64,000 bases of DNA from contig JBBQNR010000001.1 in NCBI GenBank assembly GCA_038330145.1, positions 10,500 through 74,499 of the forward strand. The letters run 5' to 3'. Numbering within the stretch: the stretch's first letter is position 1; every line of letters starts with the position of its first letter. The notes beneath the pieces are model-generated. The model was not told the DNA's origin, ran no database searches, and worked only from the letters and a program-made list of their open reading frames with translations. This document shows, in pieces, positions 40,231 through 64,000 of this stretch. Made by a program: the position numbers and the translations under genes. The DNA is from Solirubrobacterales bacterium (lineage in GTDB: Bacteria; Actinomycetota; Thermoleophilia; Solirubrobacterales; JBBDJG01).

Positions 40231-40307
40231 CGCTACTCGCAACGGAGCAGCGTGTTTGAGCTGACGTCCGGCAGGTGGCTTGTCCTCTGTGCGCTGCCGG
40301 CGCGGAG

Positions 40308-47322: not shown

Positions 47323-47501
47323 AGGTCCTACCTCCTGCCCGGCCGGAAGGTCGAGCCGTTCGGATAACGCGCGTGCTGACACTTCATACCGTGTATCGGC
47401 GACGGCACCGGGCTCCTTTACGTCACCAGCCGCGGACGAACAGCCCATCCCGGCGCGATTGCACGCCAGGCCGGGCTTTCCAGGGACTAGACTCAGCCGC
47501 C

Positions 47502-48240: not shown

Positions 48241-48300
48241 GCTCTCAGTTCTTACCGGAACTTTCGCTAGCTTATGGCGTATTGATCGTTTACATTCGAT
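48241..48300 (+). promoter_or_regulatory. AT-rich promoter-like region ahead of the polysaccharide operon
   Basis: ttaccggaactttcgctagcttatggcgtattgatcgtttacattcgat is the most AT-rich stretch for kilobases. It includes a TACATT (TAnnnT) box at 48291-48296. No convincing -35 element. Confidence 0.3.
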
Positions 48301-48975
48301 GTGGCCCGCATCCCCATGAGAAGGACGACTATTCAGGCTACGGACGGCCGCTCCTTTGGCGTGGAGCCCCCCGCCGGCTATTGGGCCGTCAAGCGGCTGC
48401 TCGACATCCTCGTTTCGGGCGTGGCCCTGCTCGTGCTCGCGATTCCGATGCTCCTGATCGCCCTGCTCGTCAAGCTCGGAGACCGCTCGGCGCCGGTCTT
48501 CTTCCACCAGCAGCGCTCAGGCGTGGGAGGCCGCCGCTTCAACCTGTACAAGTTCCGCACCATGGTCAAGAACGCGGACGAGCTCAAGGAGCAGCTGCGC
48601 TCCCACAGCGTCGTCGCCTGGCCGGACTTCAGGGTCTACGACGACCCGCGCACGACCAAGATCGGTCGCTTCCTGCGCAAGGCCAGCCTCGACGAGCTGC
48701 CGCAGCTGATGAACGTGATCAGGGGCGACATGAGCCTCGTCGGGCCGCGGCCCACCAGCTTCGACGTCAGCACATATCAGCTCTGGCACACCGGGCGGCT
48801 CGAGTTTCGGCCCGGGATCACCGGCCCCTGGCAGGTGCTCGGGCGCGATTCGATGGACTTCGACGAGCGTTGCAGGCTCGAGATCAGCTTCTTCCGCCGG
48901 CCCTCGATCTGGGCCGAGCTGAAGCTGCTGGCTGCGACACTCCCTATCGTTCTACGTAGGACCGGAACCGCATGA
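48301..48975 (+). CDS. Polyprenyl-phosphate hexose-1-phosphate transferase (bacterial sugar transferase, WbaP/ExoY C-terminal type)
   Basis: [16 protein letters not shown] helix, then [27 protein letters not shown]. Confidence 0.9.
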
Positions 48976-49625
48976 GCTCACTCACCAACCTCAGCCGCTC
49001 ATTGACCACGACCGTCACGATCGCGGTCGCGACCGTGATCCTGTTCGCCGGCTTCGCCTATTCGATCGTGCGGCCGATCACGTACCAGAGCCAGGCCACG
49101 CTGGTCATGGTCCCGCAGCCGACCGATCCCAAGGACCTCGCTGGAGTGCTGGACTCGTTCCAGCGGTCGGGCACCGCCGGAACCTATGTCGAGCTGCTGG
49201 CCTCCGAGGACACACTCAAGCGGGCGGGCAACCCGCCTGTGACCGTCAAGGTCCGCTCGGTGCCCGACACCCGCGCGATCCGCCTCCTCGCCTCCGCCGA
49301 CGACCAGAACATCGTCCAGCCGGCCCTGCGGTCGCTGGTGGTGGCCGCGCAGCGCGAGCAGGACAAGCTCGTGGACATCTGGGACCTGAGAGTGCTCCAG
49401 TCGCCGACGTCTCCGGCGAAGGCGAGCACGAGCAGGAGCCTGATCCTCATGGCGACGATCCTGCTGGCATTCCTGGGCGCGCTCGCCGCCTGGACCTTGC
49501 TGCGCCGCTACGGGGTGGGTCAGCCACCGGACAGGCGCACCGCGGCCGCGGCCTCCCGGGCCGAGGCGCTGGCCGCTGCCGACTGGCTGACCAGAGAGGG
49601 CCCGCGCTACCCCACCAGCCGCTGA
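48972..49625 (+). CDS. Small polysaccharide co-polymerase (Wzz-like) candidate, two TM helices and no kinase domain
   Basis: N- and C-terminal TM helices flank a ~150-aa extracytoplasmic segment. ATGA overlap with the priming transferase gene. The assignment rests on topology and context. Confidence 0.5.
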   Translation: MSSLTNLSRSLTTTVTIAVATVILFAGFAYSIVRPITYQSQATLVMVPQPTDPKDLAGVLDSFQRSGTAGTYVELLASEDTLKRAGNPPVTVKVRSVPDTRAIRLLASADDQNIVQPALRSLVVAAQREQDKLVDIWDLRVLQSPTSPAKASTSRSLILMATILLAFLGALAAWTLLRRYGVGQPPDRRTAAAASRAEALAAADWLTREGPRYPTSR

Positions 49626-49626
49626 C

Positions 49627-51024
49627 GTGGCCGGGGGAGCGGAAACCCTCCGGTACCCCGCCGGGCGCTATCCCAACGGCGGCAACGGCAATCCCCCCGG
49701 GCCGCGCCTAGCCGCCGACCTGCTGATCCTCATCGGCGCGGTGCTGCTGGCTGCGTCGCTGCCGCTGATCGCGCTTCGCTTCCTGTCCCTGAAGCCGGGG
49801 TTGTTCCCCTTCCTGGTGGTCGGGGTCATCGGGGGCGCGTACCTGCTGCGCAATCCGCGCTGGATCGTTCCCAGCTACATCGGTCTCGTCTGGACGTCGA
49901 TCGATGCCGTCTACTTCGGCGGCCTCCCGTCGCCGATCGAGACTTCCGGAATGTTGTTGCTCGGCTTCGCCGTTTACCAGGCGGCGCTGCGCTTCGGCTA
50001 TGCCAAGGAGGTGCTGGTCGTCTGCGCCTTCCTCGTGCTGCCGCTGCTGGCCGCCGGCCTCGTGAGCCCCGACGGGATGGAGGTGCCGGTCCCGCAGCTC
50101 AAGAACATCGCCTTCCTGTTCATCGTGGCTCTGATCGTTCGCAGCATCGAGGACGTCGACCACGCCGCGATCACCCTTGCTTGCGTGGGCGTCTTCCTGG
50201 GCGCCGGCTCGATCTTCTCCGTCTTCGTGCATCCGACGCCGCTGTTCCCGCTGAAGGCGAATGACATCCCCTTCATTCCCATAACCCCGCGGGCGGCCGG
50301 GCCCGTCGGCGACCCCAACTTCTTCGCGCTCGTGATGGCCTCGCTGGTGCCGTTCGGCATGTACCTGATCGCGCGCGGGGCCAGGCGGCAGCTGCTCGGC
50401 ATCCTCTCGGTCCTGGTCGTCCTGGGCGGTGTCTTCGCCACCGGCTCGCGCGGCGGCATGATCGCCTCCGGCGCTGCCATCGTCGGCGCGGGGCTGATCA
50501 TGCCGGTCTTCCGCATCCGCGTCGCGGCGGCCACGGTCGTGATCGGAGCCATCATCGCGCTACCGCTGTTCGCGGCGCAGACTCAGGACGCCAACGCGCG
50601 CTCGGTCGAGGGCCGTTTGACCGAGAACCTGGTCGCGGTGGCGATGTTCGCCGATTACCCGGTGACCGGCGTGGGTCCGGGAATGTTCCCCGATCACTAC
50701 CGTGACTACAGCCGCAACATCGGCAACGACCCGCGCACGGAGCGCGAGGCGCACAGCCTGCCGCTTGAGGTTGCGGCCGAGCAGGGCCTGGCCGGCTTGA
50801 TCGGCTTCACGCTCGCCTTCCTGACCGTGTTCCGGTTCGCCTACGCTCGCGGGGTCTGGAGGCTGCTGATCGGCAGAACGGTGACGCTTTCGATCGTCAC
50901 CTACATGATCGCCAGTCTCTTCCTGCACGGAAGCGAGATCCGCCTGCTGTGGGTGCTGCTGGGAATGCTGCTCGGGCTCGGCTGGGCCGCCAAGGAGAAG
51001 CCGCCCAGGACGTTGCTCGGTTGA
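49627..51024 (+). CDS. O-antigen ligase/polymerase family membrane protein (Wzy-like)
   Basis: About 10-12 TM segments, and a TGSRGG motif followed by a large loop. Confidence 0.75.
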   Translation: MAGGAETLRYPAGRYPNGGNGNPPGPRLAADLLILIGAVLLAASLPLIALRFLSLKPGLFPFLVVGVIGGAYLLRNPRWIVPSYIGLVWTSIDAVYFGGLPSPIETSGMLLLGFAVYQAALRFGYAKEVLVVCAFLVLPLLAAGLVSPDGMEVPVPQLKNIAFLFIVALIVRSIEDVDHAAITLACVGVFLGAGSIFSVFVHPTPLFPLKANDIPFIPITPRAAGPVGDPNFFALVMASLVPFGMYLIARGARRQLLGILSVLVVLGGVFATGSRGGMIASGAAIVGAGLIMPVFRIRVAAATVVIGAIIALPLFAAQTQDANARSVEGRLTENLVAVAMFADYPVTGVGPGMFPDHYRDYSRNIGNDPRTEREAHSLPLEVAAEQGLAGLIGFTLAFLTVFRFAYARGVWRLLIGRTVTLSIVTYMIASLFLHGSEIRLLWVLLGMLLGLGWAAKEKPPRTLLG

Positions 51025-52106
51025 GCGCCCGGGCTGCCTGCTTCTGGGCCAGCGCCGCCGGCGCAGGCTGGGTGCTGGTCGGCTACCCGCTGGCGCTGAT
51101 GCTGCTCCCGGAGCGCCGCTGGTCGCAGGGCGACGGCGACCCGGCGGTGTCGATCCTGATCCCCGCCTACCGTGAGCGCGAGGCGCTGCGCGACAAGCTG
51201 CGCGCGCTGTCGGAGCTCGACTACCCGGCTGATCGGCTGCAGGTCATCGTCACCGTCGACGAGGACGAGGAGCTGGCCCGGATAGCGCGCGACGCGCGGC
51301 CCGACGCGACGGTGCTGTTCTCCGCCGAGCGAGCCGGCAAGGCGGCCGCCCTCAGCCGCGGCCTCGAGGCCGCCAGCGGCGACATCGTGTTGATGACCGA
51401 CGCGAACAACCTGCTCGACAGCGGCAGCGTGCGCGCCGCGGTGCGCCACTTCGCCGAGCCCGAGGTGGCCGCGGTCGCCGGGCGCAGGGGAGAGCGCGAC
51501 AGCGCCTACGATCGCTACGAGCACATGATCCGCACGCTCGAGAGCCGTTCCGGGAGCGTGGCGGCGATGTCGGGCGAGTTCATGGCGGTTCGCAAGGAGC
51601 AGTTGCCGGCCTTCCCGGAGCACGTCGTCAACGACGACTTCTGGCTGCTGTGTCACCTCGTGCGCCACGGTGGCCGTGTCGTCTACGAACCGGCGGCTTC
51701 TTCGCGTGAGGACGCCGTCCCGGTCGCGGGTGAGGTGGCGCGACGAACGCGCATGAGCGCGGGCCGCGTGATGGCGCTGTCCGAGCTGCGCGACCTGCCG
51801 CCCGGCTTCGCCTGGCGCGCGCTGTCGCACAAGTACGGGCGGTTGGCGCTTCCCTTCCTGCTGCTGGGCGCCCTGCTGGCCTCGCTGTCGCTGTCGCAGC
51901 GCCGCGGCTATCGCGCGCTGGCCGGCGCTCAGGTTGCGCTCTATGCGTCCGGTGCGCTGGCGGTCAGCGTCAGGGTCCCGCCCGGCCGTGCCGGCAGGCT
52001 GGCGCGAGCGGCGGGCCAGTTCACGCTCGGCAACGCCGCGGTCGGGCTAGGAGTCGTGCGCGGGCTGCGCGGGCGCCAGAGCGTTCACTGGGACCCCGTG
52101 CGCTGA
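51021..52106 (+). CDS. Glycosyltransferase family 2 with C-terminal TM helices
   Basis: VSILIPAYRE, a TDAN (DxD-like) motif, and a QxxRW-like region (RRTRMSAGRV). TTGA overlap with the Wzy-like gene. Confidence 0.85.
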   Translation: MSARAACFWASAAGAGWVLVGYPLALMLLPERRWSQGDGDPAVSILIPAYREREALRDKLRALSELDYPADRLQVIVTVDEDEELARIARDARPDATVLFSAERAGKAAALSRGLEAASGDIVLMTDANNLLDSGSVRAAVRHFAEPEVAAVAGRRGERDSAYDRYEHMIRTLESRSGSVAAMSGEFMAVRKEQLPAFPEHVVNDDFWLLCHLVRHGGRVVYEPAASSREDAVPVAGEVARRTRMSAGRVMALSELRDLPPGFAWRALSHKYGRLALPFLLLGALLASLSLSQRRGYRALAGAQVALYASGALAVSVRVPPGRAGRLARAAGQFTLGNAAVGLGVVRGLRGRQSVHWDPVR

Positions 52107-53287
52107 GTTTCGGCCGGGGCGTCCTGCTGGGGCGCGGAGTCGGTGTCGCGTCCCGTGATGAAATCGGCCAGGCGACGGCACTCGGCTTCCATCGTGTAAC
52201 GGCGGACGTGCCTTTGGCCGGCATCCACCATGCGCTCGCGCAGCGTCCCGTCCTGGGCCAGGCGCGAGAGCGAGTCGACGGCGGCGCCCACGTCGCCAGG
52301 CTCGATCAGCAGCGCGCTGTCGCCGATCGCCTCGGCGACGCCGCCGACGGAGGTCGCGACCACCGGCAGCGCGGCGGCCATCGCCTCCAACAGCACCTGC
52401 GGCAGGCCTTCGGTCCAGGAGACGTGCAGGAAGAAGTGCCCGGCGCGGTAGACCTCGACGAGCCCGTCGTCGATCGGCACGTGGCCCTTCAGCTCGACCA
52501 CCGACGCGACGTCGAGCTCGGCGAGGCGGCGCTCCAGGTCCTCCTCCAGCGGCCCGTCGCCGCAGACCACCAGCCTCCAGCGCGGGTCGCGCTCGTGCAG
52601 GCGGGCAATCACCTCCGCCAGCATGAGCGGGTTCTTCTCCGGGTCCAGCCGGCCGACGCTGACGATCCGCAGCTCGCCGTCGTAGGAGCGGTCGAGCTGG
52701 CCCGGATCGACGATGTCGTGGTCGCGCACGAGCGAGACCGAGATCTCGAGCAGCCGAGGCGCGGCGGCGTAGTTGCGCGCGAGCTGGGGTCCGACGACGA
52801 CGATCGGGAGCCTGCGGGCGAGCAGCCGGTAGGCGTGCTCCAGCAGGTCGCCCGCGAGGTGGATCCAGCGCTTTCCGGGCCGGCGGTTGCGAATGTACTG
52901 CGGCATGTCCTGGCGCACGCCGAGCACCACGCGCTTGCGTCTGAGGAGCGCCAGCAGCACATATGCGAGCGAGAGCGGATACGGGCCCAGCAGCCAGACG
53001 GCGTCGACGTCGCGCAGCGTTCGCCAGTAGACGCGCAGCGAGCCGGCGAAGGTGCCTGCCGCCTGCAGCGGGTTGGACGCGTCGGCATGGTAGGGCAACG
53101 GCACGAAGTCGATCTCGTCGGCGAGCCGATAGTGCGAGCGGTGGGGCTCGGGGCTGAGGCGGCCGAGCACGATCAGGCTGTCGAGCGAGCGCGCGAGCTG
53201 GCCCAGGAAGACGACGAACGCGCGCGCCGCGTAGATCGAGTCGCCGTGGCGCCAGTAGGCCTGGTCGGTGTGGACGGCGACGCGCAT
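52085..53287 (-). CDS. Glycosyltransferase family 4 (GT-B)
   Basis: A 400-aa frame from ATG 53287 contains GRLDPEKN...EGLPQVLLEAMAAALPVVATSVGG (EX7E motif). The rest of track ORF 52085..54598 is an antisense shadow. Confidence 0.85.
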   Translation of the reverse strand: MRVAVHTDQAYWRHGDSIYAARAFVVFLGQLARSLDSLIVLGRLSPEPHRSHYRLADEIDFVPLPYHADASNPLQAAGTFAGSLRVYWRTLRDVDAVWLLGPYPLSLAYVLLALLRRKRVVLGVRQDMPQYIRNRRPGKRWIHLAGDLLEHAYRLLARRLPIVVVGPQLARNYAAAPRLLEISVSLVRDHDIVDPGQLDRSYDGELRIVSVGRLDPEKNPLMLAEVIARLHERDPRWRLVVCGDGPLEEDLERRLAELDVASVVELKGHVPIDDGLVEVYRAGHFFLHVSWTEGLPQVLLEAMAAALPVVATSVGGVAEAIGDSALLIEPGDVGAAVDSLSRLAQDGTLRERMVDAGQRHVRRYTMEAECRRLADFITGRDTDSAPQQDAPAETQRTGSQ

Positions 53288-53332
53288 GCGCCGGCCAATG
53301 ATATGCCTGCGCCGTCCCGTACCATCGAATCG

Positions 53333-54517
53333 ATGACCGCGAGCCCGAGTCGCCCGATACGGGTTCACGCGCTGATCTCGTCGCTGACCTGGGGCGGTGC
53401 GGAGATGCTGCTGGCGGAGTTCGCGGCCGGCGCGCCCTCCGCCGGAATCGAGCTGTCGGTCGGCTTTCTCGAGGACCGCGACGGCAGCCCGGCGGCCGGC
53501 CGGCTGAGAGAGCGCGGGGTGGAGCCGGTGCTGGCGGCGATCAAGGGGCCGATGCCGCTGCTCAACCGGTCCGACCACCAAACCGTGCGGCGGCACCTGG
53601 CAGACGTACGGCCCGACATCCTGCACACGCACCTCGGCTACGCGGACATGCTCGGCGGCCTGGCTGCGCGCTCGCTGGGGATCCCGGCCATCTCCACCAT
53701 CCACATAATGGAGTGGCGGCGCGACCTGCGCGACACGCGCAACTTCGCAAAGGAGCGCCTGATGAGCCTCGTGAGACGGCGATACATCAAGACGGTCGTG
53801 GCGGTGTCCGACGCGGCGCGCCGTGCGTATCTCGACACCGGCTGGGACACCGAGAAGCGCGTCGTCACCGTTCACAACGGCATCGTCGCCGAGCCGAGAC
53901 CGGGCGCGGGGCGAGCGGTGCGGGAGCAACTCGGGTTGGCGCCCGACGACACGGTTGCGGTGATGCTGACGGTGCTGCGCCGGGGCAAGGGGCACGACGT
54001 CGCCACCGCCGCTGTCGCATCGCTGCGCGAGCGTTTCCCGAAGCTGAGCCTCGTGATCGCCGGCGACGGGCCCGACAGGGCCGAGATCGAGCGGCTGGCG
54101 GGGCCGCTGGGAGACGCCGCCGTGATGGCGGGTCACCGCGACGACGTGATGGCGCTCCTGGACGCCGCCGACATTCTGTTGCACCCGACGTACGTCGACG
54201 CCTTTCCGACCGCGCTGCTGGAGGCGATGGCGGTCGGCCTGCCGATCGTGGCAAGCGCGGTGGGGGGGATCCCCGAGATCGTCGACCCCGGTCGCACCGG
54301 TCTGCTGGTCGACGCGCCGCCGCAGGCCGGCCAGGTGGCCGATAGTCTCGCCCGCCTGCTCGAAGACGGCGAGCTTCGCTCCCGCCTCGGTGCAGCCGGC
54401 CGCGAGCGCTTCGAGCGCGAGTTCACCGCCGAGGCCTGGGCCGCCCGCATGCGCGGCGTTTACGAGGCGGCGATGACCCCAAACGGTGGCCCGCGCCCGC
54501 CGGTACACAATCCCTGA
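53333..54517 (+). CDS. Glycosyltransferase family 4 (GT-B)
   Basis: A 394-aa frame from ATG 53333 contains LTWGGAEM, RRGKGHD and DAFPTALLEAMAVGLPIVASAVGGIPEIV. It lies divergent from the previous GT4 gene across a 45-bp gap. Confidence 0.9.
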   Translation: MTASPSRPIRVHALISSLTWGGAEMLLAEFAAGAPSAGIELSVGFLEDRDGSPAAGRLRERGVEPVLAAIKGPMPLLNRSDHQTVRRHLADVRPDILHTHLGYADMLGGLAARSLGIPAISTIHIMEWRRDLRDTRNFAKERLMSLVRRRYIKTVVAVSDAARRAYLDTGWDTEKRVVTVHNGIVAEPRPGAGRAVREQLGLAPDDTVAVMLTVLRRGKGHDVATAAVASLRERFPKLSLVIAGDGPDRAEIERLAGPLGDAAVMAGHRDDVMALLDAADILLHPTYVDAFPTALLEAMAVGLPIVASAVGGIPEIVDPGRTGLLVDAPPQAGQVADSLARLLEDGELRSRLGAAGRERFEREFTAEAWAARMRGVYEAAMTPNGGPRPPVHNP

Positions 54518-54554
54518 CCCCGGCCGAGAATAAGGAGATGAGAAGCACGGGACC

Positions 54555-56039
54555 ATGGCTTCGAGCCGCAGCCTAGGCACCCGCACGCTCCGGGGCATGT
54601 TCTGGGCCTACGGGTCCTACGTCGGCGGACGCCTGCTGACGCTGCTGGCGACGGCGATCCTGGCGCGACTGCTGACGCCACGCGAGTTCGGCCTCGTCGC
54701 GCTGGCGATCCTGTTCATGTTCCTGCTCGAGACGCTGGCCGACCTGGGCGTCTCGCAGGCGCTGGTGATCGTGAAGGAGGAGGATGAGCTCGAGCACGCC
54801 GAGACGGTGTTCGTGTGGAGCATCGCCCTGGGAGCGGCGTTCTCGATCATCACCGCGGCGGCGAGCCCGTTGGCGGCTTCCTTCTTCGACCAGCCGGGCC
54901 TGACCGCGCTGCTTGCGGTGCTGGGACTGCGGTTCTTCATCCGTTCGATCGGGGCCACCCACTTCACGCTGGCCCAGAAGCGAATCGACTTCCGCCCACG
55001 TACCGCCGCGCAGCTGTCGGACGTGACCCTGCGCGGCCTGACCGCGATCGGCTTCGCGATCGCGGGCTTCGGGGCCTGGAGCCTGGTGCTCGGCTACATC
55101 GTGGGCAGCGTCGCGTCGACGGTGGTGCTCTGGGTGATGGTGAAGTGGCGCCCGCGCCTGAAGCCACAACGAGCTCACCTGCCCCAGCTGCTGCGCTTCG
55201 GCGGAACGCTGACCGGCCTCAACCTGTTGACCGCGATGGAGACGAATCTCGACTTCATCTTCATCGGTCGCTTTCTGACCGCCAGCGACCTGGGCCTCTA
55301 CTCGCTCGGGTTCCGGCTGCCGGAGCTTCTGATCCTCAACCTCTCGGTGGTCGCCGGCCAGGTGCTTTTCCCGGCCTTCGCATCGATCGAGCGCGAGGAC
55401 CTGAGCAGGGCGTTCAGGGTTTCGCTGCGTTACACGCTGATGATCGCGCTGCCGATGGCCGCCGGGCTTGCTGTGCTCGCGCACCCGTTCATCCTTGCCC
55501 TGTTCGGCGACCAGTGGGAGGGCTCCGTTCCCGCGATGCGGGTATTGACGCTCTACGCGCTGGCAGTCGCGATCTCGATTCCCGGGGGCACCATCTTCAA
55601 GGCGATGGGCCGTGCCGGCATCCTGCTCGTCATCGGCATGCCCGAGGCGATCCTGCTGTTCGCCGCGATCTGGACCTTCGTGGACCACGGCATCGTTGCG
55701 GTCGCGGCCTGCATGGCCGGCGTGATGGGGGCGGTGGCGCTGATAAACACGGGGCTGGCCATGGGGAAGCTGGGCGTCGGGCCGAGCGCGGTCTGGAGGC
55801 TGCTCTGGCCACCGCTGCTGGCGACGGCGGGCATGGCGGCGGTGCTGTTTCCGATCGAACGCGCGATCGACTCGCCCTGGCCGGCCCTCCTGATCGGCGG
55901 CGTCGCGGGCGGCCTGACCTATCTCGGGCTGCTGTGGCTGTTCGCTCGCGACGCGCTGATCAGGCTGCGCGACATCGCGCGCGGGCAGAACGGCGGACGT
56001 GGAGACGAAGGCACGCCGGGCACCGACGCGGTGGCCTGA
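54555..56039 (+). CDS. Polysaccharide flippase (Wzx / MOP superfamily)
   Basis: About 12-14 TM segments and an N-terminal RGMFWAYGSYVGGRLLTLLATAILARLL pattern typical of Wzx-like exporters. Confidence 0.85.
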   Translation: MASSRSLGTRTLRGMFWAYGSYVGGRLLTLLATAILARLLTPREFGLVALAILFMFLLETLADLGVSQALVIVKEEDELEHAETVFVWSIALGAAFSIITAAASPLAASFFDQPGLTALLAVLGLRFFIRSIGATHFTLAQKRIDFRPRTAAQLSDVTLRGLTAIGFAIAGFGAWSLVLGYIVGSVASTVVLWVMVKWRPRLKPQRAHLPQLLRFGGTLTGLNLLTAMETNLDFIFIGRFLTASDLGLYSLGFRLPELLILNLSVVAGQVLFPAFASIEREDLSRAFRVSLRYTLMIALPMAAGLAVLAHPFILALFGDQWEGSVPAMRVLTLYALAVAISIPGGTIFKAMGRAGILLVIGMPEAILLFAAIWTFVDHGIVAVAACMAGVMGAVALINTGLAMGKLGVGPSAVWRLLWPPLLATAGMAAVLFPIERAIDSPWPALLIGGVAGGLTYLGLLWLFARDALIRLRDIARGQNGGRGDEGTPGTDAVA

Positions 56040-56349: not shown

Positions 56350-57879
56350 ATGCACCACACCCACCGTGAGCACACGCTCACGAGGAGCGCCTTTGGCGGG
56401 CTTGCCGCCCTGGCCGGCATCGCGGTGCTCCTCGTCGCCCTGGCCGCATCTCTGTCGATGCCGGCAGTGGCCGGAGCGAAGGACCGCTCCTTCACCGCAG
56501 TCAAGGTGAAGCACGGAGTGGCGACTTTCAGGTTGAAGCACGTATCGCCGCGGCAGATCCGCTCGGCGCACGTCCTCGGGCCCAAGGGCACGAAGCGGCT
56601 GTCGCTGAAGCGCATCCGTCGCGCTGCCCGGCGCGGCTACCTGCGCACCAGGATCTCGCGTCACGGCAAGCACAGGCTGCACGTGAGGTCCAAGCGGGCC
56701 CGTCGCTCTGCTTGGTCGAGGCGACGTTCCAAGAAGACCGACCCGACACCGCCGCCGACGACCACACCGCCACCGACCAACACGCCACCACCGACGAACA
56801 CACCACCGCCGACCAACACGCCACCACCGACGACCACACCACCGACCGACCCGATTCTGGTGATCGAGACGCCCGATCCTCCGACTCCCCCGGAGACCGG
56901 TGCCTGCACGACTGACCTGAATCAGTTCGCTCCCGGCCAATCGCCGGCGGCATGCTGGCGGGCGTACGCGGACACGAGCCCGTTCAACCGGCTGATACCG
57001 GCCGGCGCGCGTCTCACGTCCGATTCGTCGTCGCTTGTCGCGAATCTGCGTTCGGAGGGAAGCGGGCCCAAGAGCGGCAGGGCCAACATCCCCGAGGGCG
57101 ACGACTACCACAAGAACATCTACTGGGCCCGCAGCACGGACCCGGAGTACACCGTCATCGGTGGCTCGACGACCGCACCCTACGACGTCGACGGCCGCAA
57201 GGTGCGCATGCCCGACGGAGCACGCCAGACTGCTGGCGGCGACGCCCATCTGGGCATCGTCTACAACGGCGAGGAGTGGTGCTTTTACCAGGCGTCGGTC
57301 AACCCGACGGCAAGGACGATCACCGTCAACTCCGGGCGACGGATCTCGCTCGCGGGCGACGGCCGCAACGCAGCCGCAACCTCGGCACGCTTCGGCTGTC
57401 TCGCGGGCCGCATCCGCTACCCGGAGTTCGCGGCCGGGCAGATCAACCACGCGATCTTCATGAGCGCGTCGACGACCGGCTCGGGCTTCGTCTACCCGGC
57501 ACTGAAGTCGGACGGCCCCAAGGGCGCCGGCTATCCACCGATGGGAACGCGCTTCCAGCTCGATCCGTCCTACGCGACGGATGCATGGCTGGCAGGGTTC
57601 CCGGCGTGGAAGCGGGCGATCCTGCGCGCGCTGCGTGACTACGGTGGATACCTCGGTGACACCACCAGCGGCGGCTGGACGGCGATGCCGTTCGAGTCGG
57701 AGGTCGGGTACTACTCGTTCGGCCTACCACGGCCGTTCGCAGCATATGCGAGCTCGCGTGACTCGACCGATGGCGACATCTCCCTGTCGGGAGGCACGTA
57801 CTACTTCAACCTGGCGAGCGGCGTGGACTGGTCCAGGCTGCGGGTCCTGGACCCGTGCGTCGCGCAGGGCACCTGCTAG
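56350..57879 (+). CDS. Secreted protein, paralogue 1: signal peptide, K/R-rich region, Pro-Thr linker, and unknown ~320-aa C-terminal domain
   Basis: ATG 56350 follows AAGGAAGGGG. Signal peptide LAALAGIAVLLVALAASLSMPAVAGA. The C-terminal domain shares CWR.Y.D.SPFN, GGD.H, GDG.N.AAT.ARFG.LAGRIR, INHA, YPPMGTRFQL, RDYGGYLGDTT and DPCV...TC with the genes at 58256 and 63197. Confidence 0.8.
   Translation: MHHTHREHTLTRSAFGGLAALAGIAVLLVALAASLSMPAVAGAKDRSFTAVKVKHGVATFRLKHVSPRQIRSAHVLGPKGTKRLSLKRIRRAARRGYLRTRISRHGKHRLHVRSKRARRSAWSRRRSKKTDPTPPPTTTPPPTNTPPPTNTPPPTNTPPPTTTPPTDPILVIETPDPPTPPETGACTTDLNQFAPGQSPAACWRAYADTSPFNRLIPAGARLTSDSSSLVANLRSEGSGPKSGRANIPEGDDYHKNIYWARSTDPEYTVIGGSTTAPYDVDGRKVRMPDGARQTAGGDAHLGIVYNGEEWCFYQASVNPTARTITVNSGRRISLAGDGRNAAATSARFGCLAGRIRYPEFAAGQINHAIFMSASTTGSGFVYPALKSDGPKGAGYPPMGTRFQLDPSYATDAWLAGFPAWKRAILRALRDYGGYLGDTTSGGWTAMPFESEVGYYSFGLPRPFAAYASSRDSTDGDISLSGGTYYFNLASGVDWSRLRVLDPCVAQGTC
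56746..56850 (+). repeat. Coding tandem repeat, ~5.5 copies of an 18-bp unit encoding (PPPTNT)n
   Basis: ccgccgacgaccacaccg / ccaccgaccaacacgcca / ccaccgacgaacacacca / ccgccgaccaacacgcca / ccaccgacgaccacacca. Confidence 0.85.
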
Positions 57880-57910
57880 GGCCCTCAAAACCGGACAAGA
57901 AGTAGTTCGA

Positions 57911-57940
57911 GGCGCCCGCTCCCGGAAGGGGGCGGGCGCC
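57911..57940 (+). terminator. Strong GC hairpin after secreted paralogue 1
   Basis: ggcgcccgctccc-ggaa-ggggcgggcgcc forms a ~13-bp stem with a GGAA loop, 31 nt after the stop. There is no U tract. Confidence 0.5.
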
Positions 57941-58255
57941 GCTCATTCCGCCTGTGAGCAAGATCGGCCCACATCACGCAATCCATGGCTACGCTGGGGG
58001 AGAGCAATGTCGCAAAGAGCGACTTTTCGCTCTACACCGGGGGTTTCCGGTTGTGCGTTGGTGCCCCGGGTTGACGTGTTATAGGGTGTTAGCTGTCTAG
58101 CTCTCGTGCCGTACCGCGCCATCAGCGTCCGGCGTAGGTGCGGCGGCGTCGCACTGCGGCAGGCATGAGCGATGCTCCGGCTGGGTATGGGGCAAGGACG
58201 AGTTGGCAAGCAAGCCGGCCCGAAGTTAGGGATGGCGAACGGGAAAACGGGAGGC

Positions 58256-60016
58256 ATGATGCAGGGAAGTTCACGCAGGGTGTTGAAGCCGCTGGTCGCG
58301 CTGTTGGTGCTGGTCTTGGTGGCGCTGGCCGGCGCGCCCGCGATGGCGGTGGAGGAATCGCCGCCCGTGTTGCGCCAGTTCGGCATGGAGACCGGCGACT
58401 TCTCGCGCTTCGATAAGACCGCCGCGACGGCCGGGTCGGTGACCATCGATGGCAACCGAACCTACGGCGGCGAGTACTCCGCCCACGCCCATTACGAGGG
58501 ACTCAACCGCCCCGGCTTCGCGCTGACCGCGTTCGACGTCGAGTGGGCCGGCGGTGACGACGTCTGGTACGGCGCCGGCTTCTACCTGCCCCTCACGTTC
58601 CCGGCGTCACAGCACGCGGACGTGATGCTCGTCGGCTGGGACAACCGCCCGACTTACCAGTCGGGGGCCGACTACAGCGGCGTCGTGATTGCGGCGTCCG
58701 ACCACAAGGCGTATCTGGTCAGAGGCAAGGCCGATGGGAGCCAGCGCGAGGTACTGGCTGGACCCATCGACGTTCCCCTCGGCCGCTGGTTCTTCACCGA
58801 GGTCCACCAGAGGCTCGATGGCGCCAAGGGCGTGAACGAGCTGTTCGTGGACGGCGAGCTGGAGAGCAAGTCCGACAGGCCCAACACTTACGGCCGCGCG
58901 GCCGATCAGGTGCGCTACGGGATGCTCGGCCTTCAGCAGCTGACACCGCTCGACCTCTGGTTCGACCGCGCCGTCGCGCGCAAAAGCGGCAGCGACCGCA
59001 CCTGCAACTGGGGGGTCACCGCCTCGCCCTGGATGACCGAGTCCGGCAGCTACATCGCCGCCGCCAAGCACGAGGGCGGCTACCCGGTCGGATGCTGGCG
59101 CCCGTACTCCGACGCCAGTCCCTTCAATCAGCGCATCCCCGAGGACGCCCGGGTCGACTCGGGCTCAGCCCAGATGGTGAAGCGGCTCACCGACGCCGGC
59201 ATGCCCACCGATCGTCGCGCCGGCATCGCCGATACCTCGGAGGACTTCTACAAGCCGACCTACTGGGCCCGCCCCACCGATCCGTTGGTACGCCTCAACG
59301 CGACCGGCAGCTCCCCGCAGATCGACGGCGATCTGATCCGGGTGCCGGTCGGGGCCCGCCCGGCCGGCGGCAGCGACCGTCACATGACGATCGTGCAACC
59401 GGACGGCTGGGAGTACGACCTCTGGCACGCGGAGCCGGTCTCCGGCGGAGTGCTGAGCTACAACGCCGGCCGCAAGATCCCCATCGTCGGCGACGGCCTC
59501 AACTCGGCCGCGACGGCCTCGCGCTTCGGCAACCTCGCCGGGCGGATCAGAGCGCAGGAGATGGAGGTGGGCCAGATCAACCACGCCTTCTTCATGGCCG
59601 CCTCGACGACCGCCACCACGGCCGTCTACCCGGCCGCGAAGAGCGATGGGAACAGGGACCCAGCCGCGGGCTATCCGCCGATGGGGACGCGCTTCCAGCT
59701 CCAGATCAGCGACGCGGAGCTGTCACGCTTCCCCTACTGGAAGCAGGCGGTTCTGCGCGCGTTCCGCGACTACGGCGGGTATCTCGGCGACACCACCGGG
59801 TCGCCCTGGACCTTCGCGGCGCTCGAGTCGGGCTCGTCGTACACGAGCTTCGGCCTCGAGGACCGCATGGTCACGTTCGCCCGCCAGGCGATGCAGCAAG
59901 GCCAGGGCGGAATCGACTACAGCGGTGGCATCTATTACTTCGACATCGCCTCCGGGGTCGACTGGGCGAATCGCCTGCGCGTGATCGACCCCTGCGTGAC
60001 CGAGCGCACCTGTTAG
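58256..60016 (+). CDS. Secreted protein, paralogue 2: signal peptide, ConA-like/polysaccharide-lyase-like N-domain, and the same unknown C-terminal domain
   Basis: ATG 58256 follows GGGAGG. Signal peptide LVALLVLVLVALAGAPAMA. The N-domain pattern is WYGAGFYLP...GRWFFTEVHQRL...NELFVDGEL...VRYGMLGL. The C-domain carries the motifs listed for paralogue 1. Confidence 0.8.
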   Translation: MMQGSSRRVLKPLVALLVLVLVALAGAPAMAVEESPPVLRQFGMETGDFSRFDKTAATAGSVTIDGNRTYGGEYSAHAHYEGLNRPGFALTAFDVEWAGGDDVWYGAGFYLPLTFPASQHADVMLVGWDNRPTYQSGADYSGVVIAASDHKAYLVRGKADGSQREVLAGPIDVPLGRWFFTEVHQRLDGAKGVNELFVDGELESKSDRPNTYGRAADQVRYGMLGLQQLTPLDLWFDRAVARKSGSDRTCNWGVTASPWMTESGSYIAAAKHEGGYPVGCWRPYSDASPFNQRIPEDARVDSGSAQMVKRLTDAGMPTDRRAGIADTSEDFYKPTYWARPTDPLVRLNATGSSPQIDGDLIRVPVGARPAGGSDRHMTIVQPDGWEYDLWHAEPVSGGVLSYNAGRKIPIVGDGLNSAATASRFGNLAGRIRAQEMEVGQINHAFFMAASTTATTAVYPAAKSDGNRDPAAGYPPMGTRFQLQISDAELSRFPYWKQAVLRAFRDYGGYLGDTTGSPWTFAALESGSSYTSFGLEDRMVTFARQAMQQGQGGIDYSGGIYYFDIASGVDWANRLRVIDPCVTERTC

Positions 60017-60029
60017 GGCGAAACGTTCC

Positions 60030-60057
60030 GGGACAGGTCGCCCAGGCGGCCTGTCCC
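60030..60057. terminator. Hairpin between convergent paralogue 2 and a glycosyltransferase gene
   Basis: gggacagg-tcgcccaggcgg-cctgtccc forms an 8-bp stem. Confidence 0.45.
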
Positions 60058-60071
60058 GCAATCTAGTGGCC

Positions 60072-61076
60072 CTAGCCGAGCACCTTTTCGAGCACCGCCA
60101 GTAGGCCGGCGACGTAGTTGTCGGGGCCGTAGCGGCTGAGGGCTACGGCGCGGGCGCGTTCGGTCATCCCGGCAACCTCCTGCTCGTTGGCCGGGTCCAT
60201 CACCCAGCGCAGCGCGGCGATCAGCGCAGCCGGGTCCGCCGGCGGCACGATCAGCCCGGTCCTGCCGTCCTCGACGTACTCGCGCACACCCATCGTGTCG
60301 ACGACGATCACGGGCTTGCCGAGCACCATCGCGTTCAGGTACGTCTGCTCGCCTGCGCTTCGGTCCGAGCGCCCCTGAAGCGCGACCACAACGACCACCG
60401 CGCTGCGAAACAGGCGCATGAACTCATCGTGCGGAACGCGGCCGGCGCGCACGTTCGGCGGCAGCGCTGCCAGCTGGTCGGTGGAGAGGCGGCCGGTGGC
60501 GAGCGTGAAGTCGGAGTCGATCTCGCGCGCGGCTGCGATCAGGGGGCCGTAGTCGCGGTGCGAGTCCCCACCGGCGAACACACCGCCGCCGCGGTCGACC
60601 GGCTCGGCCAGCTCCTGCTCCGAGAGCGTGTAGTAGTAGGGCGCGACGTGCACGCGCTCGGCCGCAACTCCCCACAGCTCGGGAAAGCGCTCCTGCTGCT
60701 GGGCGGAATGGACGCAGTAGTGGACGTGGGCGCCGTCCAGGAACCGGATCCCTGCTCTGGTGACGAGGCGGTCCAGCCTCGAGCCGCCGCTGCCCCAGAC
60801 GCAATCGGCGACGATCACCTTCGGCGGCCGGCGCCTGCGGCCGATCGCCGCGGCGGCGGCCAGCTCGCGCAGGGGAGAGCCGGAGCCGTTCAGGAACAGC
60901 GCCCTGTAGTCCTTGGCGGCCCGCAAAAGCCGGCGTACGAGACCCAGATTCGAGATCGCGCTCGGATCCACCATGTCGAGGCGCTCGACCCACTCGTGGC
61001 GGCGGGGGAAGTAGAGCGTCGTGAGGGCGGGCTTGCGAGGCTGCTGGGCTGCCACGTCGGTCATCTTGGCGCACAT
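60072..61076 (-). CDS. Glycosyltransferase (GT-B fold, GT1/GT4-like)
   Basis: The C-terminal half reads GEQTYLNAMVLGKPVIVVDTMGVREYVEDGRTGLIVPP (EX7E-like). The N-half is divergent. Confidence 0.7.
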   Translation of the reverse strand: MCAKMTDVAAQQPRKPALTTLYFPRRHEWVERLDMVDPSAISNLGLVRRLLRAAKDYRALFLNGSGSPLRELAAAAAIGRRRRPPKVIVADCVWGSGGSRLDRLVTRAGIRFLDGAHVHYCVHSAQQQERFPELWGVAAERVHVAPYYYTLSEQELAEPVDRGGGVFAGGDSHRDYGPLIAAAREIDSDFTLATGRLSTDQLAALPPNVRAGRVPHDEFMRLFRSAVVVVVALQGRSDRSAGEQTYLNAMVLGKPVIVVDTMGVREYVEDGRTGLIVPPADPAALIAALRWVMDPANEQEVAGMTERARAVALSRYGPDNYVAGLLAVLEKVLG

Positions 61077-61143
61077 CGGCGACCGCCCCGCTTTTCTAAA
61101 GAGGTTGGGCCTCCGGCCGAGAACTAGATAGGGCCATCCGCCT

Positions 61144-62277
61144 ATGCTTCACCAATCTGCTTCCAGCAACGCAACCGAACAACACGCCGCCCTGCCCGCT
61201 GAGCCGGCGGGTGCGCGCGTGGGCGATCTGACGCTGGAGCCAATCGACTCCTTCGAGGTCGCCCCGCAGGAGTGGGGCGGGCTCGCGGAGCGCAGCGGCA
61301 ACCTGTTCGCGACGCGCGAGTGGGCCGAGACCTGGTGGCGGCATTTCGGCGACGGAAGGCCCCTGCTGCTGACCGCCTGTCGCGGGTCGGGGGGAAGCTT
61401 GGCCGCGGTGCTTCCTCTCTACATGGCCTCCGGCCGCCCGCTGCGAACTCTGCGCTTCCTCGGGCACGGCCCCGCTGACCAGCTCGGGCCCGCCTGCGAC
61501 CCCGCCGACAGCGCCGCCGTCGCCGCCGGCCTGAAGAGCGGGTTGAAGCGGAGGCACTGGCCGTGGGACATCTTCATCGCCGAGCGCCTCAGTGGCTCCG
61601 AGCACTGGGGGTCGTTGCTCGGAGGAAAGGTGCTTCAGAAGGAGTCGAGCCCTGTCATGACCACCGGCGGCCTGGGCTGGGACGCCTACCTGGCCTCGCG
61701 CAGCTCCAACTTCCGGCAGCAGGTGACGCGCCGGGAGCGAAAGCTCGCGCGCGAGCACGAGATCCGCTACCGGCTCGCCGATCGCGACTCCTTCGAGGCC
61801 GACTTCGAGCGGCTGGTCCAGCTCCACGAGTTGCGCTGGGGAGAGCGCTCTCCTGCCTTCGTCGGCCCGCTGAAGGGCTTCCATCGCGATTTTGCCTCCG
61901 TCGCGCTCGACCGCGGCTGGTTGCGCCTGTGGTCGCTCGAGGTCGACGGCACGACGGTTGCGGCCTGGCACGGCTTTCGCTTCGGAGGCTTCGAGAGCTA
62001 CTACCAGTCGGGGCGCGATCCCGAGTGGGACAGCCACCGCGTCGGCTTCGTGCTGCTGACGCACACGATGCGCGAAGCCTTCAACGACGGCATGGGTGAG
62101 TACCGCATGCTGCGGGGAGCCGAGGCCTACAAGGACCGGTTCGCCAACGAGGATCACCACATAGAGACCTTCACGCTGGCACGTGGAGTCGGCAGGGCGG
62201 CATCCGCGCTCGGCGGCGCGGCGCGCAGGACGATGCCGGCGCGAGTCAGACGCCGGCTCGCGCGCCTCGCCGGATGA
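61144..62277 (+). CDS. GNAT-fold acyltransferase of the CelD/BcsL (FemAB-like) type
   Basis: EWGGLAERSGNLFATREWAETWWRHF...LELDGTTVAAWHGFRFGGFESYYQSGRDPEW...YRMLRGAEAYKDRF is typical of CelD-like proteins found in polysaccharide loci. Confidence 0.7.
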   Translation: MLHQSASSNATEQHAALPAEPAGARVGDLTLEPIDSFEVAPQEWGGLAERSGNLFATREWAETWWRHFGDGRPLLLTACRGSGGSLAAVLPLYMASGRPLRTLRFLGHGPADQLGPACDPADSAAVAAGLKSGLKRRHWPWDIFIAERLSGSEHWGSLLGGKVLQKESSPVMTTGGLGWDAYLASRSSNFRQQVTRRERKLAREHEIRYRLADRDSFEADFERLVQLHELRWGERSPAFVGPLKGFHRDFASVALDRGWLRLWSLEVDGTTVAAWHGFRFGGFESYYQSGRDPEWDSHRVGFVLLTHTMREAFNDGMGEYRMLRGAEAYKDRFANEDHHIETFTLARGVGRAASALGGAARRTMPARVRRRLARLAG

Positions 62278-63041
62278 GCGACGTGCTCGTCATCTGCTAC
62301 CACGCGGTGAGCGAGCGCTGGACCGCGCGGCTGTCGATCACGCCGAAGCTGCTCGAGGGCCAGCTTCGGTGGCTGCTCGACCGCGGCTACCGCGGCACGA
62401 CCTTCACCCAGGCGGTAACGGCGCCGCCCTCGGGGAGGACCGTGGCAGTCACCTTCGACGATGCCTTCCTGTCCGTGTACGAGCAGGCGTATCCGATCTT
62501 GGCCCGTCTCGGCCTTCCCGCCACCGTGTTCGTGCCGACGTCCCTGATCGGGACCGGGGAGCCGATGGCCTGGCCCGGGATAGACGAGTGGCTCGGTGGA
62601 CCCTACGAGTCCGAGCTGGTCGGCATGTCCTGGCAGCAGGCGAGCGAGCTCGCCGACGGAGGCTGGGAGATCGGCTCGCACACCCGCACGCACCCTCACC
62701 TGACCGAGTTGGACGGGGAGACGCTGGTGAAGGAGCTGGAGGGATCGCGCGATCAGCTCGAGCAGCGCCTTGGGCGCCCCTGCCCCTCGCTGGCCTACCC
62801 TTACGGCGACGTAGACGAGCGCGTGGCGCAGGCTGCCTCACAGGCGGGCTACCGGACCGCCGCCGGGCTGCCCGGGCGCCCGGAGTCCCCTGATCCGCTG
62901 CGCTGGCCGCGCGAGGGCATCTACTGGTACGACGACATTCCCAAGTTCCGGCGCAAGGTGGCACTGCCGCTGCGGCGCCTGCGCGCGTCCCGGCTGTGGC
63001 CGCTGATGTATTCCGGCCGCCGTAAATTGCGGGGCTTTTAA
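62274..63041 (+). CDS. Polysaccharide deacetylase (NodB domain)
   Basis: VAVTFDDAFLSVY, ATVFV, and GSHTRTHPHL. ATGA overlap with the acyltransferase gene. Confidence 0.85.
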   Translation: MSDVLVICYHAVSERWTARLSITPKLLEGQLRWLLDRGYRGTTFTQAVTAPPSGRTVAVTFDDAFLSVYEQAYPILARLGLPATVFVPTSLIGTGEPMAWPGIDEWLGGPYESELVGMSWQQASELADGGWEIGSHTRTHPHLTELDGETLVKELEGSRDQLEQRLGRPCPSLAYPYGDVDERVAQAASQAGYRTAAGLPGRPESPDPLRWPREGIYWYDDIPKFRRKVALPLRRLRASRLWPLMYSGRRKLRGF

Positions 63042-63196
63042 CGGCCCCGGTGGCGCGGCCCCAGGTTCCGCCCCGGTGGGGTCCAATAACGCCTGTATAC
63101 TCGCGCGCCTCGAAGCATCCGAGAAGGCACCAACTCAGGGTCCAGCGGAAATGGACCCTCGCCAGCCACACGGACGTCTTGCGCTCGCCAACCGCC

Positions 63197-64000
63197 ATGC
63201 TTCTGCTCACCGTCGCGCTCGTAACAGCGATCGCGTCTGCGGCAGTGATGCCGCCCGCGACCGCGCAGGCGGCGCCGCAGGACCCCTGCGCGCCGGCCTA
63301 CGGGTCCTTCACTGCCGGCAACTGGCCGCCCGCCTGCTGGCGGCCGTACTCGGACGCCAGCCCGTTCAACGTCCGGGTGCCACCGAACCCCACGCTCAAT
63401 CCGCGCTCGGCCCAGATCGTCCAGCGCCTGCTCGGCTTCGGGCCCCCGAACCCTGAGCGAGCCGGCCATGCGGACGGCGGCAACGACTTCGACAAGCCCG
63501 TCTACTTCGCCCAGCCCGGTGACCCCGTAGTGACTCTGAACGGCTCCGGTACCTCCCCTATCGACGGCGAGAGGATCCACGTGCCGGCGGGGGCCCGGCC
63601 CGCGAGCGGCGGCGACGCCCACATGACGATCGTGGAGTCCAACGGCTGGGAGTACGACCTCTACCAGGCCCACGAGCCCTCGGCGGGAGTGCTGAGCTAC
63701 AGCTCCGGGCGCAAGATCCGTATCGACGGCGATGGGCTCAACTCTGCCGCGACCGCCTCGCGCTTCGGCAACCTGGCCGGCAAGGTGACGGAGCCCGAGC
63801 TGCGGGCCGGAGTCATCAACCACGCGCTCGTGATGGCGATCAACTGCACGTCGGGCAGCTTCGTCTGGCCGGCGATGAAGACCGATTCCAAGTGCTCCAA
63901 CCCCACCGACGCGCCGCCGATGGGAGCTCATTTCTGGCTCGCCATGAGCGACGGCCAGATCAACGCACTGCCGGTCCCGGCGTGGAAGAAGACGATCCTG
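63197..64000 (+). CDS. Secreted protein, paralogue 3 (partial, runs off the window): signal peptide directly followed by the unknown C-terminal domain
   Basis: This ORF is not in the track because it is open at the window end. My translation from ATG 63197 is MLLLTVALVTAIASAAVMPPATAQAAPQDPCAPAYGSFTAGNWPPACWRPYSDASPFNVRVP...GGDAHMTIVESNGWEYDLYQA...GDGLNSAATASRFGNLAGKV...INHALVMA...PPMGAHFWL. Confidence 0.8.
   Translation, partial: MLLLTVALVTAIASAAVMPPATAQAAPQDPCAPAYGSFTAGNWPPACWRPYSDASPFNVRVPPNPTLNPRSAQIVQRLLGFGPPNPERAGHADGGNDFDKPVYFAQPGDPVVTLNGSGTSPIDGERIHVPAGARPASGGDAHMTIVESNGWEYDLYQAHEPSAGVLSYSSGRKIRIDGDGLNSAATASRFGNLAGKVTEPELRAGVINHALVMAINCTSGSFVWPAMKTDSKCSNPTDAPPMGAHFWLAMSDGQINALPVPAWKKTIL

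Follow-up and report, generated by a model that had tools for sequence, protein, structure and literature searches.

The question raised by this locus is what a secreted protein domain, present in three neighbouring copies and outside the named families, does among the genes for a polysaccharide. The window (the whole 64,000-nucleotide stretch analysed, from contig JBBQNR010000001.1 of assembly GCA_038330145.1) comes from a Thermoleophilia, Solirubrobacterales-like genome and is rich in GC (~69%). A Pfam scan identifies its final 16 kb as a Wzx/Wzy-type polysaccharide locus, hereafter an extracellular polysaccharide (EPS) locus. Three genes of this locus, P1, P2 and P3, encode paralogues with a common C-terminal domain of ~320 residues, the shared domain. 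On balance, and with fair though limited confidence, we regard it as the catalytic module of a large family of secreted enzymes, still without a name, that cleave glycans and act on the polymer of their own locus. The parts of the three genes, all on the plus strand, are as follows.

56299 (TTG, 526 aa) or 56350 (ATG, 509 aa) to 57879, plus strand: P1 gene (list of open reading frames (ORFs); GC at third codon positions (GC3) 0.82)
56350-56478, plus strand: P1 signal-peptide-like segment (MHHTH...PAVAGA), read from the translation
56479-56736, plus strand: P1 basic N-terminal module, ~86 aa (jackhmmer in the collected set; alignment)
56737-56904, plus strand: P1 Pro/Thr-rich linker (translation)
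56905-57876, plus strand: P1 copy of the shared domain (C203-C526)
58172-60016, probable start M29 at 58256, plus strand: P2 gene, 614 aa (ORF list; GC3 0.90)
58256-58348, plus strand: P2 signal-peptide-like segment (MMQGSSRRVLKPLVALLVLVLVALAGAPAMA), from the translation
58388-58966, plus strand: P2 N-terminal jelly roll, PF14099 Polysacc_lyase (Pfam, AlphaFold2, Foldseek)
59003-60013, plus strand: P2 copy of the shared domain (C278-C614; AlphaFold2 and conservation analyses)
63197 (or TTG 63179) to >64000, plus strand: P3 gene, cut by the window end
63197-63271, plus strand: P3 signal segment, the domain beginning from C31 at 63287

The first-pass annotation, made from the letters of the window, had described three paralogues with a common C-terminal domain, and this is borne out: the copies can be aligned over their full length with 43-51% pairwise identity, and P1 matches P2 in the shared domain with 50% identity (E=7e-92), far beyond chance. 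In P1 the domain is counted from a conserved Cys (56905) that lies 16 residues upstream of the CWR motif. P3 orthologues elsewhere measure 357 aa (locus L004) and 475 aa (locus L007). The signal peptides claimed for the three proteins also stand, as hydrophobic N-terminal signal-like segments with AxA-type ends read from each sequence, and so do the different N-terminal architectures, namely a basic module and PT linker in P1, a ConA-like jelly roll in P2 and no module in P3. The motifs listed for the domain are present, with two minor corrections: P2 has GSDRH rather than GGDxH, and P1 has WCFYQ, so that the final L of that motif is missing.

Family, fold and conserved residues

The shared domain lies outside every named family, as had been supposed. 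Pfam-A and NCBIfam searches at E<=1 find nothing over it in P1, P2 or P3, and a Pfam search of 57 diverse family members taken singly, again at E<=1, finds no family over the domain. PDB sequence-profile searches with two alignments, one of them more diverse and including the phage branch described below, yield only noise. No confident match to a family unrelated to glycans, a peptidase for example, emerged from the Pfam, NCBIfam, PDB and Foldseek searches. Among the homologues listed (120, 26 and 10 clusters) no enzyme names are found; most are called 'hypothetical protein' or are unnamed, and the sole domain name is NUDIX (P0084). Literature searches on Gordonia phage tail depolymerases and on AlphaFold surveys of mycobacteriophage host-binding proteins brought up no title or abstract that points to the domain.

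Conservation extends far beyond the three copies. A word-indexed search detects 758 relatives; among the 120 of them that were listed, the few with a named source come from Solirubrobacteraceae, Thermoleophilaceae and Actinomycetota. A hidden Markov model search of 1.84 billion cluster representatives returns 8314 at E<=1e-3, 4872 at <=1e-10 and 1119 at <=1e-30. Restriction of the conserved motifs to the window is excluded because of these 8314 representatives. A genome scan with a deliberately narrow motif, and hence biased to close relatives, returned 55 loci. Nearly all are from Thermoleophilia (Solirubrobacterales, Thermoleophilaceae, Conexibacter), the rest being labelled 'Actinomycetes', 'Actinomycetota' or 'bacterium', and the cultured carrier among them is Conexibacter sp. 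CPCC 205762 (locus L030). P2 itself gave no exact match when looked up in public assemblies, and the nearest relatives are a metagenome-assembled Solirubrobacterales genome (75% identity, the best genome-scan locus) and metagenome fragments (~90%). The domain also occurs in tandem arrays, with four full-length copies in P0122 (1691 aa; NCBI whole-genome shotgun record JRHI01) and two in P0121 (714 aa), neither protein having a further Pfam domain.

The AlphaFold2 model of the domain, for which 57 sequences were aligned, is very confident (pLDDT 95.9, pTM 0.93). It is a compact globule of 313 aa, whose N-terminal half is rich in beta structure and whose second half is alpha/beta. Foldseek finds no match for it among 350,542 PDB chains (best E=0.41, TM-score <=0.15). 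There is no likeness to the solved TIM barrel, (alpha/alpha)n toroid, beta-helix, jelly roll or beta-propeller folds of glycoside hydrolases (GH) and polysaccharide lyases (PL).

Conserved residues are given here in family numbering, with P2 equivalents listed separately. At least 95% of 254 domain instances keep Ser15, Asn18, Ser31, Asp69, Asp101, His103, Arg159, Glu162, His170, Tyr233 and Asp239. A more diverse alignment, with the phage branch included (20-25% identity), shows no exception at Arg159 and His170 and at least 90% conservation at each of Ser15, Asn18, Asp69, Asp101, Glu162, Tyr233 and Asp239. In P2 this core corresponds to S316, N319, D370, D402, R460, E463, H471, Y534 and D540, which together with H404 and E552 make up the candidate active-site residues of that protein. 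The GGDxH and INHA motifs had been put forward as a catalytic or metal site. The Asp of the former and the His of the latter are indeed kept in all six aligned phage copies, but the His of GGDxH (His103) falls outside the universal core because it is replaced in the phages. The pattern of conservation looks enzymatic. Its two carboxylates would fit a glycoside hydrolase, Arg/His/Tyr with carboxylates a lyase, and Ser/His/Asp an esterase or peptidase.

The proposal of a disulfide between the first and last Cys is rejected on cysteine covariation, since these two do not covary. C307 and C313 instead occur together in 188 instances, with 3 exceptions, irrespective of C7, whereas in 195 of 204 instances C7 is accompanied by a Cys 13-17 residues upstream. 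This co-occurrence within local pairs points to two local disulfides, as is typical of exported proteins; together with the signal segments, they make export of the domain probable. All four cysteines are absent from the phage copies.

P1, P2 and P3 may not be equivalent, differing in activity or specificity, because two of them deviate at conserved positions. Arg159 is kept in 249 of 254 domain instances and in every member of the diverse alignment, but P3 has a Thr there (T198, 63788-63790). P1 carries a Cys (C328, 57280-57282) at family position 115, where 87% of the members have Asp.

Fusion partners and N-terminal modules

Across the family, the shared domain is fused to CBM60, to CBM96 with fn3, and to Laminin_G_3 (in four proteins). 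One protein of 1613 aa combines GHL15, Big_7, the shared domain, Big_13, fn3 and a dockerin. CBM96 is an alginate-specific carbohydrate-binding module (CBM; PMC9971899). The fusion partners are those typical of carbohydrate-active enzymes.

P2 itself contradicts the earlier statement that the locus has no recognisable glycanase or lyase. Its N-terminal module passes the PF14099 (Polysacc_lyase) threshold (38.5 bits for a cutoff of 29.9, E=1.5e-9, positions 2-207 of 210), so the locus does hold a recognisable lyase-like module. PF14099 is the family holding heparinase I (PL13) and glucuronan lyase (PL20). The AlphaFold2 model of the module, of moderate confidence (pLDDT 68, pTM 0.75), is an all-beta jelly roll of 14 strands and resembles lyases: Foldseek aligns it in the PDB with TtX122, PL7/PL14 alginate lyases, Cip1 and heparinase I (TMq 0.44-0.54). 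The module is thus lyase-like by profile and fold, and its catalytic competence is putative. It is distinct from the shared domain and absent from P1 and P3.

The basic module of P1 (~75-86 aa) is without a Pfam match and is the commonest partner of the domain. With a caution for its biased composition, jackhmmer within the collected set places it at the N-terminus of about 70 of the 297 family proteins, P0105 among them. P0296 has this module too, but in front of a PF14099-like jelly roll, which there takes the place of the shared domain. The two domains are so alternative cargoes behind one targeting module, and this arrangement therefore gives a further hint that the shared domain is catalytic. 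The basic module may be a surface-targeting or polyanion-binding element exchanged between catalytic cargoes.

It could also be supposed that the partners are the catalysts (PF14099, GHL15, the beta-helix) and that the shared domain has no catalytic role and binds glycans or acts as an adhesin, as a large lectin tethering proteins to the EPS or the cell surface and serving in receptor binding in phage tails. This would agree with the lack of detectable enzyme homology in Pfam, NCBIfam, PDB and Foldseek and with the annotation of the phage homologues as 'minor tail proteins'. However, about nine polar or charged residues are conserved between bacteria and phages at 20-25% identity, which is unusual for a lectin, and ~320 aa is large for a CBM. 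Moreover, the domain occurs in fusion with genuine CBMs (CBM60, CBM96), and it is often the sole domain after the signal peptide (P3, P0027, P0005). We therefore hold a pure binding function to be unlikely.

The polysaccharide locus and its counterparts

P1, P2 and P3 are interspersed among the polysaccharide genes of the window, which are listed below. The assignments are by Pfam except where stated.

48286-48975: Bac_transf, initiating sugar transferase
48960-49625: Wzz-like (weak, under the Pfam cutoff)
49627-51024: Wzy_C
50949-52106: GT2 glycosyltransferase
52085-53380, minus strand: GT4 glycosyltransferase
53351-54517, plus strand: GT4 glycosyltransferase
54555-56039: Wzx/Polysacc_synt_3
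60072-61076, minus strand: GT1-like glycosyltransferase, between P2 and P3
61144-62277, plus strand: Acetyltransf_6, between P2 and P3
62274-63041: Polysacc_deac_1, between P2 and P3

Pfam scans of the window ORFs find no phage genes around P1, P2 and P3; the setting is a chromosomal EPS locus. Genes of uronic-acid synthesis, sought as a means of separating a lyase from a hydrolase, are lacking among the window ORFs scanned. Two ORFs of ~800 aa each, at 52085-54598 (minus strand) and 52208-54517 (plus strand), overlap almost completely on opposite strands and are dismissed as high-GC shadow ORFs. Only their C-terminal halves are real, as two divergently transcribed GT4 glycosyltransferases.

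The association with Wzx/Wzy loci, proposed for this window, holds in other genomes as well (L003-L007 and L069). The window EPS proteins were searched by tblastn against the 55 loci, within 10 kb of the domain and with EF-G and an aminotransferase as controls. At least one EPS-type neighbour is found in 46 of the 55 loci and at least three in 32, while the two housekeeping controls match in 1 and 0 of them, respectively. Two or three copies of the domain are present in 17 of the 55. A few divergent members lie outside polysaccharide loci (L067, L059-L063 and L066).

Seven relatives were examined with gene calls. Six of these (P0027, P0005, P0105, P0010, the distant P0278 and P0195) lie among or next to polysaccharide genes. 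P0278, of the phage-like branch, is found among GT4, Wzy_C, WecG, DegT and deacetylase genes, and P0195 adjoins Polysacc_deac_1. The seventh, P0164, has housekeeping neighbours. Two of the related loci, L004 and L007, are syntenic with the window and have the order GT4, GT4, Wzx, PF14099-fused copy, Acetyltransf_6, Polysacc_deac_1, P3 orthologue and epimerase; L004 alone has an extra glycosyltransferase between the PF14099-fused copy and Acetyltransf_6. L003 and L005/L006 are different Wzx/Wzy loci. Given this conserved co-location, the domain genes are accessory genes of Wzx/Wzy-dependent EPS loci.

The company of a deacetylase and a GNAT protein brings to mind an enzyme that modifies the glycan and leaves it uncut, either an esterase or deacylase with a Ser15/His170/Asp triad or an epimerase, which would tailor the EPS with these neighbours. 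Polysacc_deac_1 and Acetyltransf_6 are indeed recurrent neighbours, Ser15, Asn18 and His170 are invariant or nearly so and are accompanied by several Asp/Glu residues, and phage tail proteins with deacetylase domains are known. We nevertheless find this rather unlikely. The domain matches no esterase family and no alpha/beta or SGNH fold, an O-acetyltransferase is not detected in the parts of the window scanned, and the fusions to lyase-like, GHL15 and CBM modules suit a depolymerase at least as well.

Some observations made along the way concern the neighbouring genes. The GNAT gene at 61144-62277 (plus strand; Acetyltransf_6, PF13480) is conserved in the related loci L003-L007, with two copies in L003. 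In another relative (L073 8001-11154), a protein with CBM96, fn3 and the shared domain is encoded directly upstream of Polysacc_deac_1, and that contig has no other polysaccharide biosynthesis genes in view. For this reason, domain and deacetylase together may form a functional unit of their own.

Two further ORFs of the window deserve mention. The first (40275-42530, plus strand) encodes 752 aa with a twin-arginine-like signal (RTRRSFLARGALLALGAAG) and lies ~2 kb upstream of an epimerase gene (44462), at the near end of the polysaccharide gene region. It has no matches in Pfam or among PDB sequences and could be another unrecognised glycan-active enzyme. The second (45532-47340, minus strand; ~600 aa) has the epimerase on one side and the initiating sugar transferase on the other. 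Its product is rich in Ser/Thr/Asn, with an N-terminal hydrophobic segment (RRRPLAGRILGSALALVFLGALIPATGTA) and no Pfam match. The gene model is uncertain because it overlaps high-GC3 ORFs of the plus strand.

Phage relatives and the proposed role

The shared domain is also found in phages. By hmmscan, P2 (E=8.2e-17), P1 (1e-11) and P3 (6.6e-8) match PHROG 17388, 'minor tail protein'. The match covers profile positions 194-424 of 702 (~235 residues), so that only the central domain of the phage proteins is shared; the N-terminal virion part and the C-terminal domain of ~250 aa are both missing from the window proteins. By tblastn the domain occurs in 66 phage genomes, all of Gordonia phages, with 25-32% identity. 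Foldseek against the predicted viral structures of BFVD retrieves an unnamed 985-aa protein (E=1e-21, TM-score 0.70), the 'minor tail protein' of Gordonia phage Guillaume (A0A411B1R7; E=4e-20, TM-score 0.70) and an uncultured-phage protein annotated with parallel beta-helix repeats (E=2e-14). Pfam has no match in the phage homologues. Homologues outside the tail cluster are exemplified by the following gene products (gp), with positions in the collected loci.

L001 5695-7512: Sukkupi gp23
L011 1826-3862: KidneyBean gp21
L008 1877-3865: GTE8 gp09
L010 1640-3868: Damp gp9
L009 2153-3862: Pupper gp97

In Sukkupi, KidneyBean and GTE8 the homologue precedes the genes for HNH endonuclease and terminase, and in Sukkupi and KidneyBean lysin B comes just before it. 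In Damp it stands between portal and protease, and one further position among the Gordonia phages examined is after the major head protein. Camerico gp27, which immediately follows the genes for the tape measure protein and a minor tail protein, is the only one placed inside the tail cluster; in most Gordonia phages examined the gene is outside it. The 'minor tail' label may thus not hold for every Gordonia homologue. These proteins (Sukkupi gp23, Camerico gp27, Guillaume A0A411B1R7) are true homologues with the same core residues. Unlike the bacterial paralogues, they carry the domain between an N-terminal virion-attachment region and the C-terminal domain, and they have neither the signal peptide nor the four cysteines, His103 being replaced. 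No activity is assigned to them, so homology to them does not in itself provide a function.

A role as endolysin was considered for the phage homologue and rejected because Sukkupi encodes separate lysin A and lysin B. The same two genes speak against a peptidase or amidase that would act on the cell wall or on surface proteins, as a virion peptidoglycan hydrolase in phages and in an autolysin-like manner in bacteria. Such an enzyme might be expected from the wall-degrading activities that actinophage tail proteins often carry; the conserved Ser/His/Asp or His/Asp/Glu could make a protease or metallo-amidase site, and a sortase is encoded in one related locus. However, no peptidase family or fold is matched and the partners bind carbohydrate, with LysM, PG_binding and SH3b not seen among the fusion partners found. 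The domain is, furthermore, embedded in EPS biosynthesis loci. All this renders a peptidase very unlikely.

We thus return to the glycan-cleaving enzyme. Its homology, family size, fusions, synteny and phage relatives, like the absence of a Pfam or PDB match, are matters of observation; catalysis, the substrate and a mechanism of hydrolase or lyase type are what we infer. Likewise, of the new class of EPS-processing enzyme first suggested, the glycan-directed role is favoured by the CBM and other fusions typical of carbohydrate-active enzymes and by the phage tail homologues, and the enzymatic activity is presumptive. According to this proposal, the three paralogues would leave the cell and work on the polymer that the surrounding Wzx/Wzy locus makes, probably by trimming, releasing or remodelling it. 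P1 would be delivered by its basic, possibly surface-anchoring module and P2 by its PF14099 lyase-like jelly roll, P3 having no such device. The active site would comprise Asp69, Asp101, Arg159, Glu162, His170, Tyr233 and Asp239 (P2 D370, D402, R460, E463, H471, Y534 and D540). In Gordonia phages the virion copies would cut the host surface glycan, acting as virion-borne depolymerases.

Enzymes with such a role are encoded by several EPS loci, as exemplified by PslG (GH39), the hydrolase domain of PelA (GH166), BcsZ (GH8) and AlgL (PL5), and further by the C-terminal domain of PgaB (GH153), Sph3 (GH135) and Ega3 (GH114). They have (beta/alpha)8 or (alpha/alpha)n folds. The proposed role would be alike, i.e. 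that of an exported, locus-encoded protein, often beside a deacetylase, that cuts its own polymer. In contrast, there is no relation in sequence or fold, which Pfam and Foldseek would have found; the mixed beta-rich and alpha/beta fold of the shared domain has no PDB match. The recurrent pairing with Polysacc_deac_1 resembles, by analogy only, the pairs of deacetylase and hydrolase in the Pel, poly-N-acetylglucosamine (PNAG) and galactosaminogalactan systems. Phage tailspike depolymerases are likewise virion-borne and presumed to act on a host surface glycan, but they are parallel beta-helices of the pectate-lyase-like type, which the shared domain is not; the uncultured-phage protein mentioned above joins beta-helix repeats with the shared domain.

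That depolymerases of the kind found in EPS loci are also used by phage tails is well known. What is new is the family and, apparently, the fold, with thousands of members and no counterpart in Pfam, NCBIfam or PDB. More tentatively, and somewhat short of an even chance in our estimation, the domain could represent a new fold class and a new CAZy family of GH or PL type with thousands of members, whose Asp/Glu/His/Arg/Tyr site is unlike those of solved glycosidases and lyases. It would be common to EPS loci of Thermoleophilia and other bacteria and to actinobacteriophage tails, and could trim or release the finished Wzx/Wzy polymer at the cell surface, the basic module of ~75 aa being a new surface-targeting device.

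Should the domain prove to be a glycanase or lyase, the catalogue of carbohydrate-active enzymes would gain a large family whose fold the PDB lacks. This would account for a recurrent 'hypothetical' gene, often in two or three copies, in the polysaccharide loci of Thermoleophilia, an abundant yet poorly studied class of soil bacteria. A widespread virion protein of Gordonia phages would likewise acquire a function, with a bearing on phage host range and on the use of depolymerases to control Gordonia foaming. The hypothesis can be tested directly, as the domain has a cultured carrier in Conexibacter sp. CPCC 205762 and the Gordonia phages are held in public collections.

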